A stretch of 4,635 bases of DNA from a virus (Duplodnaviria; Heunggongvirae; Uroviricota; Caudoviricetes). Location of the stretch: the IMG/VR virus record IMGVR_UViG_2740892423_000025, one strand, 5' to 3'. The position numbers were made by a program, and so were the translations under genes. Shown here in pieces: positions 1 through 4,462 of the stretch (the stretch's first letter is position 1; each line of letters opens with the position of its first letter). Below the pieces are notes generated by a model. It had not been told where the DNA came from and made no database searches. It saw only the letters and a list, made by a program, of their open reading frames with translations.

Positions 1-387
1 GTGCAATATTTAAAAGGAACGCCATTACATCAGGCCCGATTTGCAGGCGTCAGGATTACATGTCCTTCAGAGCTTTCCTCTTCAATAGAGGAGTATTTTA
101 AAAATAATGGATTTGATATAGGTCGTGTGACTTGCTTCTCTGCGAATGCACCCGATATGCTTAGTGTTACGTTTGAGTTGCTCTCACGGGCGAAAAAATT
201 TGCAGAGGTTATTATGGGGTTATTGAACAGGAATGATGTCGAAGTTGAATTACACCTTTGTACCAGAGACGATGAGCCTAAAACTGCAAAGCTCAAATTA
301 AGAAACCTCAAAGATGTTGATGCGTGTGAGCGTCTGATTGATAAACTGGCTGCAGTGGTAATAACGCCAAAGAAAAATGAAGAATAA
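1..387 (+). CDS. hypothetical protein, probably 5'-truncated at the window edge (family not recognised)
   Basis: Frame open from base 1 to TAA at 385-387. The GTG at 1 cannot be tested as a true start because no upstream sequence is in the window. Followed 24 nt later by an intrinsic terminator. Amino-acid composition looks protein-like. Confidence 0.5.
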   Translation: MQYLKGTPLHQARFAGVRITCPSELSSSIEEYFKNNGFDIGRVTCFSANAPDMLSVTFELLSRAKKFAEVIMGLLNRNDVEVELHLCTRDDEPKTAKLKLRNLKDVDACERLIDKLAAVVITPKKNEE

Positions 388-468: not shown

Positions 469-483
469 GGGTGCCTTATCGGC
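469..483 (-). promoter_or_regulatory. fbi-like 3' element of the toxin mRNA, complementary to its predicted 5' end (810-823)
   Basis: Plus 469-483 gggtgccttatcggc is an inverted repeat of plus 810-823 gccgaaaggcaccc. In the - strand RNA, 5' GGGUGCCUUUCGGC can pair with GCCGAUAAGGCACCC in the 3' UTR: 14 bp with one bulged U, including 9 contiguous perfect bp. Confidence 0.4.
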
Positions 484-533
484 CTTACCCTGGCAACCGA
501 TTGACGGGGGATTGCTCCCCCGTCGCGGTTTCC

Positions 534-677
534 TTACGGTTTACACTGTAAGAACGCCGCAAACTCCGCTCCCCAGAAGCTCATCCGTATCTCGCAGAGC
601 GAACCCTGCAACATCCAGATGATGAGGATTGCCGTCACGCACAGTGTGGTGATGGCGATTAGCGATTTTTGCGACAT
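534..677 (-). CDS. hok: Hok/Gef-family type I toxin (small membrane protein), 47 aa
   Basis: Not in the ORF track (too short). Reverse-strand translation ATG 677-675 to TAA 536-534 gives MSQKSLIAITTLCVTAILIIWMLQGSLCEIRMSFWGAEFAAFLQCKP. Hydrophobic N-terminal segment, then SLCEIR and E-x-AAF motifs as in plasmid R1 Hok (…[25 protein letters not shown], from memory). SD AAGGAG about 8 nt upstream of the ATG. Confidence 0.8.
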   Translation of the reverse strand: MSQKSLIAITTLCVTAILIIWMLQGSLCEIRMSFWGAEFAAFLQCKP

Positions 678-780
678 AGCACTTGCTCCTTTTTCGGAGA
701 GGCGCTAACCTACGACTTGCGAAGGTTGTATGGCTAGGGCCTCGGGTTAACGTTAAAGTTGACTCGGGGCCTTTCCACAT
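541..780 (-). CDS. mok-like overlapping reading frame (79 codons) that fully overlaps the hok-like ORF in another frame
   Basis: ATG at 780-778 preceded by GAAGG. In-frame stop just upstream (793-795) fixes the maximal extent. Ends at TAA 543-541, 7 nt beyond the hok stop, the arrangement described for mok/hok. The protein sequence itself is not diagnostic. Confidence 0.4.
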   Translation of the reverse strand: MWKGPESTLTLTRGPSHTTFASRRLAPLRKRSKCYVAKIANRHHHTVRDGNPHHLDVAGFALRDTDELLGSGVCGVLTV

Positions 781-809: not shown

Positions 810-823
810 GCCGAAAGGCACCC
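810..823 (-). promoter_or_regulatory. tac-like 5' element of the toxin mRNA (partner of 469-483)
   Basis: Lies exactly at the transcription start predicted independently from the promoter at 830-859. Complementary to 469-483 (see that feature). Confidence 0.4.
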
Positions 824-863: not shown

Positions 864-891
864 TTGAGGCCTCTCAGCCTTCTGATATAAA
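864..891 (+). promoter_or_regulatory. candidate strong sigma70 promoter with extended -10, driving the 898-964 small RNA
   Basis: -35 TTGAGG (864-869), 16-nt spacer, TG at 883-884, -10 TATAAA (886-891). Predicted start at G898 or A899. Confidence 0.45.
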
Positions 892-897
892 ATTCCC

Positions 898-964
898 GAC
901 CGCAGACATTATTCAGTCACGCATTTGATACATGCTTCCGCCGGCGTTCGCGCCGGTTTTTTTT
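898..964 (+). ncRNA. candidate ~67-nt small RNA, divergent from the hok-like gene (possible Sok-like antitoxin RNA; relation to the toxin unproven)
   Basis: Bounded by the promoter at 864-891 and the terminator at 941-964. No ORF with an SD inside. Possible small stem 921-924/932-935. Size matches type I antitoxin RNAs (Sok is about 64 nt). It does not overlap the predicted toxin mRNA (about 415-823). Confidence 0.4.
941..964 (+). terminator. rho-independent terminator
   Basis: Perfect 6-bp GC stem ccggcg (941-946) / cgccgg (951-956), tetraloop ttcg, followed by eight T (957-964). Confidence 0.65.
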
Positions 965-981
965 CGTCCTGTTGCTGCGTA

Positions 982-3205: not shown

Positions 3206-3777
3206 GTTTTCCCTTCCTCTTTCACGCTCCCGATGCCAACAGCATCCAGACCAGAGCCAACGGCATCATTGATTTTTTTCCAGAACGAACTTTGCGTATT
3301 CATGCCTTTGTCTGGTGCCTGTTCGCTACCGTTCTGGGTCTGCTGTCTGGCGATGGTTTTCTGCGAACCGCTACGTGCAGACGCTTTCTCTGGCACGCTT
3401 AATTTTTCCCTGAGAGTAAAGGTGACCTGCCAGTGCATTTTTCCCTGTTGTTCCGTGGCATCAATGCCACCAGAAAATACCCCCTGTCGCATATTGATTG
3501 CCTTCGCGGTAGCGTTAGCAATGCGATATGTTTTTTTCGCGCCATTGCTTTCTGTTGCCTCCGCAAGCTGAAAAATACGGGTCAGAATAGCTTCATCGTT
3601 AAAATCAATAACCCCCGACACGCGCAGCTCTTTAGCCTTGCTTCCCTGCTGGGCGCTCGTGGTGCTGGTTGACTGTCCGGACATATCTTTGTCCGGTAGT
3701 TGCATGGTGGCGCTGACGGTGATGTTGCGCAGCAGAATGGCTTCCCCGTCAAGCGCAAGGACAATCATCTGGGTCAT
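3202..3777 (-). CDS. hypothetical protein, 191 aa (possible tail/baseplate accessory protein by context only)
   Basis: ATG 3777-3775 with SD AAGGGAAG about 7 nt upstream. Stop TGA 3204-3202 overlaps the next start. No family recognised. Confidence 0.65.
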   Translation of the reverse strand: MTQMIVLALDGEAILLRNITVSATMQLPDKDMSGQSTSTTSAQQGSKAKELRVSGVIDFNDEAILTRIFQLAEATESNGAKKTYRIANATAKAINMRQGVFSGGIDATEQQGKMHWQVTFTLREKLSVPEKASARSGSQKTIARQQTQNGSEQAPDKGMNTQSSFWKKINDAVGSGLDAVGIGSVKEEGKT

Positions 3778-4462
3778 GTAGTGCTTCCCTTAGTGATGAG
3801 AGATCATCGCCGACGAACAGCATCACAGCTGTAAAAACCCACTCAGGGTGTGGGATGTTTTTTTGTATCAGCACTGCGGCCTGGCTGAGGGCTCCCTTGT
3901 AGCAAAAGCGCCACACCGGGCAAAATTTTTGCCGGAGTGCGGCCTGCTGATCAGCGATTTCCTGTAGAGCTTTATCTCTCGCATTCATGAACTGATGCAG
4001 TGATGATGACAATGTTTCCGGTGATGTGGCGGCAGGAGTGGCTGCCTGTGCAATGGTTGCCGCCAGCGACATGCTGCGAGTGGTCTGTGTCGACAGCATT
4101 ATCGGTTCCGGAAGTGATGTTGCCGGTCTGGCGGGGATTTGCATTCTGCTGATGGCCAGTGAAAGCTGGCTGGAGATCATGCGGGACATTCGTCCCACCT
4201 CCGGCAACGGAAATGCGCCTGAAAATTGCCTGGCGAGTGATAAAAACTCGCCAGCAGAAGGAGCGCAAAATAACAGCGCCACAATGTCCTTTTCTGTGTT
4301 TTCTTTCAGATAGGGTAAAAGTGCAGATACAGCATTTTCGGGGCTGAGATAACGCCCCGATGGTTTGATGTTTCCGGTATTTTCTGACCATGGATGCAGG
4401 CAAACCACAGAGCATTTAATGTTCATGGCTGACGGGCGCAGAATTGCCTTTTCCCATTTCAT
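3749..4462 (-). CDS. hypothetical protein, 237 aa, with an S/T/A/P-rich central linker and Cys pairs (C-x3-C N-terminal; C-x5-C and C-x-C C-terminal)
   Basis: ATG 4462-4460 with SD GGAGAG. Start overlaps the stop of the upstream partial gene (ATGA). 3' end overlaps the 191-aa gene start by 29 nt. No family recognised. Confidence 0.6.
   Translation of the reverse strand: MKWEKAILRPSAMNIKCSVVCLHPWSENTGNIKPSGRYLSPENAVSALLPYLKENTEKDIVALLFCAPSAGEFLSLARQFSGAFPLPEVGRMSRMISSQLSLAISRMQIPARPATSLPEPIMLSTQTTRSMSLAATIAQAATPAATSPETLSSSLHQFMNARDKALQEIADQQAALRQKFCPVWRFCYKGALSQAAVLIQKNIPHPEWVFTAVMLFVGDDLSSLREALHDPDDCPCA

Follow-up and report, generated by a model that had tools for sequence, protein, structure and literature searches.

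A probably complete hok/sok-type type I cassette without a conserved mok frame beside prophage baseplate genes

Results and discussion

Positions 417–859 of the DNA analysed here (a 4,635-nucleotide stretch from a tailed-phage record, IMGVR_UViG_2740892423_000025, hereafter the window) very probably constitute a complete and apparently intact hok/sok-type type I cassette, arranged for a scheme of mRNA end pairing, 3' processing and antisense control. Its centre is a 47-codon open reading frame (ORF) which, judged by its sequence, is a real and ordinary Hok-family membrane toxin gene. The gene is already known, being called by PGAP and present in the catalogue of a recent Hok survey. For the cassette as a whole, we computed the ORF, its family, its conservation, the promoters, the complementarities and the predicted folds.

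The 47-codon ORF encodes a Hok-family protein

The hok coding sequence runs from an ATG on the minus strand (534–677, 47 codons) and specifies the product MSQKSLIAITTLCVTAILIIWMLQGSLCEIRMSFWGAEFAAFLQCKP. A preliminary description, made from the letters of the sequence, had placed a 47-codon ORF exactly at these positions, leaving its strand (minus) unstated, and its reading of the gene holds in each respect. The good Shine–Dalgarno sequence (SD) that it claimed is AGGAG at 686–690 on the minus strand, 8 nt before the hok ATG, as read from the sequence; the hydrophobic N-terminal segment corresponds to residues 5–23, with a mean Kyte–Doolittle value of 2.43, which is transmembrane grade; and the Hok core can be read directly as SLCEIR at residues 26–31 and AAF at residues 40–42. 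The family membership that it proposed is borne out by the HMM of Pfam PF01848 (HOK_GEF), which aligns residues 7–45 with profile positions 4–42 of 42 at 29.3 bits (E = 6.5e-7), above its gathering score of 22.

Other profile collections place the protein in the same family at different depths. The “moron” family PHROG 251, which bears the name “MokW-like host killing” and groups Hok proteins broadly, matched with 78.4 bits (E = 5.8e-22). Among NCBIfam models, the best match was to the HokA equivalog of E. coli K-12 (NF007290), yet at 35.7 bits it falls far under the cut-off of 89, and the Hok-subfamily model NF007279 likewise stayed below its cut-off (23.6 bits vs. 73). Since the NF007290 score lies under the equivalog cut-off, the window protein is a Hok without being a HokA ortholog, and HokA orthology was rejected. 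Identity to R1 Hok in BLASTP is 38% over the core comprising the transmembrane (TM) segment, LCEIR and AAF.

Among 5.8 billion proteins searched, 43 were homologs at E ≤ 1e-3. One is a 100%-identical 47-aa nr entry, “Hok/Gef family protein [Escherichia coli]”, found on 44 contigs; the 42 other relatives are mainly 46-aa proteins from E. coli, Shigella and Salmonella. Codon differences from close relatives were synonymous more often than non-synonymous (9:4, 7:5 and 6:5), the pattern that purifying selection is expected to give. Judged by the Pfam score above the gathering threshold and the 43 homologs, the hok ORF is far beyond what chance would produce. The opposite reading, that the frame is open by chance or that the real product is a 79-aa protein encoded by an overlapping frame, can appeal to the shortness of 47 codons and to that longer ORF on the same strand. 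It is refuted by the Pfam match and the 43 homologs, alongside the NCBIfam and PHROG matches to Hok, while the 79-aa product itself found no match in Pfam and its frame is broken in most relatives; we therefore give it practically no weight. Neither Hok nor the adjoining 128-aa protein matched any of the PADLOC defence models.

The window protein belongs to a surveyed Hok cluster

A 2026 bioRxiv survey sorted 1264 unique Hok peptides, at 60% identity, into 61 clusters and found hok genes to be four-fold enriched in prophages (10.1101/2025.08.07.668861). The window protein belongs with its “cluster 72” (MSQKSL...IIWML.GSLCE...GAEFAAFLQCK), and window residues C13-V-T15, L27-C28-E29 and E38 occupy positions that are more than 80% conserved in the Hok logo of that survey. 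Only the final residue, Gln in place of Pro, separates peptide 1584 from the window protein, and peptide 1585 is the copy from E. coli A36. Two further members, 72_1621 and 72_1589, which correspond to the copies from E. coli CFIA and from phage VT2-Sakai, appear in Table S2 of that survey among the tested sequences, cloned for the overexpression assay (10.1101/2025.08.07.668861); by our own count, 72_1621 and the window Hok are identical at 42 of 47 positions.

Out of 45 homologs tested in the survey, 42 were toxic, the non-toxic ones being 19_179, 60_1482 and 69_1540 only (10.1101/2025.08.07.668861). Because the survey, in its own statement, names only these three other sequences as non-toxic, the toxicity of cluster 72 has been shown by others. 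Compared with the tested 46-aa members, the window allele, like peptides 1584 and 1585, has an extra Thr in its TM segment; it also carries Gln24 and, unlike peptide 1584, ends in Pro instead of Gln. For this exact allele (extra Thr, Gln24 and C-terminal Pro) we infer toxicity. The survey analysed coding sequence only and explicitly left out mok, and likewise Sok and mRNA structure (10.1101/2025.08.07.668861), which are the subject of the following sections.

The predicted hok mRNA pairs its two ends

A promoter scan placed a sigma-70-like hok promoter on the minus strand at 830–859 (−35 TTGAAA, 18-nt spacer, −10 TAGAAT; 10 of 12 consensus positions), and because it ends at 830 transcription would start near 823. 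The 5' end of the K-12 hokC mRNA, GGGTGC, aligns with the window at about the same position, ~823. From there to position 664, on the hok-sense strand, the Rfam model RF01794 (“sok”) matches over its full length with 41.9 bits (E = 3.6e-7). By Rfam's standard the window leader is thus a diverged member, the score being under the gathering value of 59, and this shortfall counts against the cassette as we read it. We observed in passing that RF01794, although entitled “sok antitoxin”, spans the hok mRNA from its 5' end to just beyond the hok AUG; as the match (664–823) is on the sense strand and not on the strand of Sok, what the model captures is the hok leader and not the antisense RNA.

The mRNA of R1 hok is governed by the logic of its tac, fbi and ucb elements (PMC9841398), and candidates for each can be located in the window. 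The putative tac element GGGUGCCUU (815–823, minus strand) forms the 5' end of the mRNA, and its GGGTG together with the next C is invariant in 10 loci. Near the other end lies a candidate fbi element, GGCCGAUAAGGCACCC (469–484, minus strand), which complements the first 15 nt of the mRNA and contains an invariant GGCACCC; within this pairing, GGGUGCCUU (823–815) is the exact complement of AAGGCACCC (477–469). In the MFE structure of the RNA from 823 to 465, 19 pairs join the 5' end (tac) to the 3' end (fbi). When the RNA is trimmed at its 3' side to 823–500, the MFE structure instead pairs nucleotides 1–11 locally with GAAAGGCCCC (766–775, minus strand), the ucb-like tac partner, giving the tac-stem of the 3'-trimmed mRNA.

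This behaviour is shared by the relatives. Independent folds of the window and nine homologous loci gave 13–19 end pairs in 10 of 10 sequences, and the duplex of 5' and 3' ends scored z values of −3.2 to −4.5 across the ten, with 0–2 of 200 shuffles doing equally well. In eight of the ten, the 5' end was predicted to refold onto the GAAAGGCCCC box after trimming. Compensatory changes between tac and fbi occur in the two most diverged loci (L010 and L011), and the helix extension reads CGAU/AUCG in S. diarizonae, CGACC/GGUCG in C. braakii and CGGCU/GGCCG in the window. Covariation of tac and fbi columns was set aside, as MAFFT gaps in the diverged loci push the helix extension out of register; support for the pairing comes from the separate folding of each homolog and from the shuffled duplex controls.

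Further elements lie between the two ends. The GAGGC box at 739–743 (minus strand) is aligned to the position of the R1-type mok SD in the Rfam alignment and the alignment of loci, and in the MFE structure it pairs with a dcb-like GCCUC at 699–703. Downstream of the stop codon a GC-rich hairpin, GACGGGGG-AGCAAU-CCCCCGUC (503–524, minus strand), was seen both in the folds and in a hairpin scan (plus strand, 502–525), and its stem is kept across loci despite differences in sequence; by analogy with the R1 model (PMC9841398), it is likely to shield the 3' end of the mRNA once processed. The unit is closed by a bidirectional intrinsic terminator at 417–448, a perfect hairpin between A5 and T5, which serves hok on the minus strand and the RuvC-family/phrog_14142 gene on the plus strand. 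A weak Rfam match to Thr_leader (417–448) was dismissed because it covers this terminator hairpin alone.

A Sok-like antisense RNA is predicted opposite the hok leader

On the plus strand, opposite the leader, a candidate Sok promoter occupies 683–711, with a −35 of TTGCTC (683–688), a 17-nt spacer and a −10 of TAACCT (706–711). Its −35 overlaps the hok SD of the opposite strand, just as the −35 of the R1 antisense promoter overlaps the hok SD, and the 17-nt spacer is likewise shared with R1. All 10 loci have the same −10, and eight of them have TTGCTC as the −35. With six of 12 consensus positions the promoter was not reported by the promoter scan, a point against our reading, as is the short U-tract (UUU) of the Sok terminator.

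The predicted Sok-like RNA of ~57 nt (719–776, plus strand; −27.9 kcal/mol) consists of a single-stranded 5' tail and a 16-bp GC-rich hairpin (738–771) followed by UUUCC. The same architecture is predicted in 10 of 10 loci at −21 to −28 kcal/mol, and it comes with two versions of the hairpin, unlike in upper-stem sequence, that both fold, and with one further compensatory change from GC to AU. The annotated sokC of K-12 (59 nt) aligns to window positions ~725–780. From these features the window is predicted to encode, in cis, an antisense RNA with its own promoter that is complementary to the hok leader.

The overlapping 79-codon frame is not conserved

The preliminary description had hok fully overlapped by a mok-like frame, as in hok/mok/sok loci. 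The frame is there: the ORF list contains 79 codons from an ATG at 541–780 (minus strand), one base out of register with hok, and it leaves only the last 7 nt of hok uncovered, so that “fully” is nearly correct. Taken literally, a frame that starts in the Sok-target region and runs at least to the hok SD answers to the definition of mok. The parallel is nevertheless not supported by the comparison of loci: the frame is missing or shortened in 9 of 12 loci, and its length is unremarkable by chance. With hok codons permuted and the leader shuffled, an open alternative frame of at least 83 codons arose in 851 of 5000 trials (17%), so the length of the 79-codon frame is not beyond chance.

Its ATG lies 103 nt upstream of hok, with AAGG 4 nt before it. 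An upstream ATG is present in 10 of 12 loci, followed by ORFs of 8, 15, 19, 24 or 79 codons in differing frames. The 79-codon ORF is common only to the window and its two nearest relatives, E. coli A36 (L001) and E. albertii (L005), which are ~95% identical; seven further loci have the ATG with an ORF of 8, 15, 19 or 24 codons, and two have no ATG. In the more distant loci, the frame one base off hok is shut by stops at −55, −43, −28 or −7 and contains no canonical start, the exception being a GTG at −28 in S. diarizonae. We looked in every aligned locus for ATG, GTG or TTG after the GAGG box and found none, and because the box is not followed by a start codon the window appears to have no R1-type mok. 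An in-frame extension of hok, as in mokC of K-12, is impossible because of a conserved TAG at −30, part of the invariant sequence complementary to the Sok −10.

Could the cassette nevertheless work exactly as R1 does, with 541–780 as a true mok whose translation opens the hok ribosome-binding site and whose initiation is blocked by Sok? The frame has an ATG preceded by AAGG and stays open past the SD and start codon of hok, the ATG is widespread among the loci, and in R1 mok is offset from hok by one base, as is the window frame. A check on this register with an R1-type IncFII plasmid locus (L012; NZ_CP128973.1) did not reproduce it. The 3' end of the predicted Sok (776) is, moreover, 2 nt from the ATG (778–780), so a Sok duplex would fall inside the ribosome footprint. 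Against this stand the confinement of the long ORF to three loci, the missing start after the box aligned to the R1-type mok SD and the share of shuffles that reach an equal or longer frame. The MFE structure predicted for the active mRNA encloses ATG 780 and its AAGG in the tac stem-loop, and the conservation of AUGUGGAAAGGCCCC is explained by its roles as tac partner (ucb) and as complement of the Sok terminator. We regard operation exactly as in R1 as unlikely; the 79-codon frame is, on the comparison of loci, most likely a lineage-specific accident and not a coupling ORF.

The geometry of R1 mok that underlies this comparison was taken in part from the literature (PMC9841398), as L012, meant as a positive control, has its upstream ATG in frame with hok. 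In that plasmid locus (440–660), the ATG follows GAGG, and PGAP calls a 33-aa Hok only, though the 52-aa ORF is intact. Because both this ATG and the mokC of K-12 (L014) are in frame with hok, mok geometry varies even among classical loci. R1 genetics requires translation of mok up to the hok SD for Hok synthesis (PMC9841398), and the lack of a conserved mok ORF reaching that SD is a further point against the cassette reading; since R1 needs mok and none is conserved here, either control differs in these cassettes or translation is inefficient. It is possible, if somewhat doubtful, that cluster-72 cassettes as a group have no ORF leading from the Sok-target region to the hok SD and so control Hok translation without mok-type coupling. 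Possible mok-free routes are a direct structural switch in which the GAGGC/GCCUC stem alternates with an anti-SD pairing of CUCC and GGAG, a standby site, or decay by RNase III alone.

The absence of a conserved mok could also be taken to mean that the locus is a decaying, non-functional hok remnant, passive in a cryptic prophage like several chromosomal hok loci of E. coli K-12. The poor consensus match of the Sok promoter would fit this, as would the many frameshifted or extended peptide variants in databases (P0002, P0005, P0011, P0015 and P0037). The ORF is intact, however, as are tac, fbi, the two promoters and the two hairpins, and all are conserved across loci down to 64–70% protein identity; synonymous changes exceed non-synonymous ones; neither an IS element nor a truncation is present; and the two tested cluster-mates are outside the three sequences reported as non-toxic. 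Decay is thus a very unlikely explanation, and the intact cassette is the reading we retain.

The cassette lies at the end of a baseplate module and recurs in unrelated phages

E. coli chromosomes match the window over its whole length at 95.2% identity, and in them PGAP names the same ORF “Hok/Gef family protein”. The gene order there, with tail fibre, DUF4376, baseplate genes, hok and a 128-aa “RuvC family protein”, equals that of the window, and the flanking ORFs match the HP1 ORF34 baseplate protein (Pfam PF25759) and PHROG baseplate families. In the best explanation, the cassette is a moron of an E. coli-type prophage, placed where the baseplate/tail module ends.

In the phage collection, the match was confined to the ~400-bp hok cassette, and the tail genes had none. 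The cassette recurs in P2-like Peduoviridae, P88-like Xuanwuvirus and Stx-converting Sepvirinae, within unrelated neighbourhoods. Homology between cassettes starts at about the hok transcription start and stops at about the fbi box or the terminator; with its bounds at these sites, the mobile unit is the transcription unit itself.

Three hok loci were found in records labelled as a Planococcaceae MAG (L006), a 226-kb contig of Vagococcus sp. WN89Y (L007) and Xanthomonas pisi (L009), with 70–89% protein identity to the query and 82–87% DNA identity to the window cassette. The likeliest account is that these assemblies are contaminated or mislabelled, and not that hok was transferred beyond Enterobacteriaceae.

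Some observations concern the surroundings of the cassette. The 128-aa ORF at 1–387 (plus strand) converges on hok; it carries the PGAP label “RuvC family protein” in E. coli, which looks weakly founded because the ORF has no Pfam match and PHROG 14142 (unknown function) is its sole match. On the other side, 660 bp between the hok promoter and the baseplate gene (840–1508) are without a convincing ORF. This stretch gave no match in the phage collection and is 93–94% conserved, only in the loci of the same prophage type (L001, L002 and L005). It includes tandem CG(G/C)TTTACGTCAC repeats at 1343–1372, copies of TGTGCGATCG at 990 and 1178, and a terminator-like hairpin at 1446–1469, after the baseplate gene. 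Back-to-back with the hok promoter, a promoter-like TTGAGG-18 nt-TAAAAT (864–893, plus strand) precedes a strong intrinsic terminator (940–957 plus T8, plus strand), and the two could bound a transcript of ~65 nt; the candidate transcript (900–966, plus strand) was rejected, its fold being no better than shuffles (z = −1.74). An Rfam match to RsmY at 3718–3859 was dismissed, as it lies within coding sequence and has an E value of 0.24.

Comparison with known hok/sok systems

The window cassette resembles the hok/mok/sok locus (parB) of R1 in the pairing of tac and fbi at the mRNA ends, in the refolding into a tac-stem after 3' trimming and in the GAGG/CCUC stem. It differs in its toxin (47 aa vs. 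52 aa), in its location (a prophage, whereas R1 is a conjugative plasmid) and in its only overlapping frame, which starts ~60 nt further upstream, is not conserved and has no counterpart starting after GAGG. With hokC/mokC/sokC (gef) of K-12 it shares the leader start GGGTGC and an antisense RNA, sokC aligning with the predicted Sok; unlike the window frame, mokC is an in-frame N-terminal extension of hokC that starts inside sokC.

A functional precedent in a prophage is HokW of the Stx2 prophage Sp5, which is toxic and countered by sokW, with contributions from RNase III and Hfq (Takada et al., 2021; PMC8621323). The pair advances lysis and doubles phage release after induction, and HokW has 51 aa and 44% identity to R1 Hok (PMC8621323). 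Both systems are prophage-borne hok/sok loci, and an oligonucleotide for the sokW locus contains TTGCCT-17-TAACC, the same promoter layout as in the window. The proteins differ: the window Hok has 47 aa and begins MSQKSL, whereas HokW begins MKQQKAM, an N-terminus read from primer YO-357. By its length and N-terminus, HokW probably belongs to a different subfamily; the idea that the window Hok is the tested HokW was rejected on these grounds, “MokW-like” being the PHROG name given to phage copies of the gene.

Phage VT2-Sakai (L013; AP000363.1), which we take to be the phage Sp5 in which hokW was studied, contains at 1210–1640 an intact 46-aa cluster-72 hok that adjoins lom, is separate from hokW and has no CDS annotation. 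This second hok could be one reason why deleting hokW-sokW has only a partial phenotype.

Proposed mechanism and implications

Transcription, processing, RNase III dependence and toxicity of the window allele are described here after the R1 and hokW paradigms. The minus strand would yield a hok mRNA of ~360–400 nt that starts near 823 and encodes a 47-aa single-pass toxin of the inner membrane. The nascent mRNA would be locked, with tac (the first ~15 nt) paired to the fbi box (469–484), until slow 3' trimming to the hairpin at 503–524 frees the 5' end, which may then refold onto GAAAGGCCCC (766–775) and so open the leader. A constitutive and presumably unstable Sok of ~57 nt (plus strand, ~719–776) would pair with the opened leader, forming a duplex that blocks expression and is marked for RNase III. 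Were Sok production to stop, Hok would be translated and the membrane damaged. Candidate roles of the cassette are retention of the prophage, help in lysis at induction as for hokW, and abortive infection.

Beyond annotation the window cassette itself matters little; length-thresholded ORF tracks miss its hok gene. Of some interest is the cluster to which it belongs. If cluster 72 is mok-free, it would represent a mok-independent variant of the textbook hok/sok mechanism, and the 79-codon frame of the window would be a recent accident; apparently lacking a conserved mok frame, cluster-72 hok offers a natural test case for gating without R1-type coupling.
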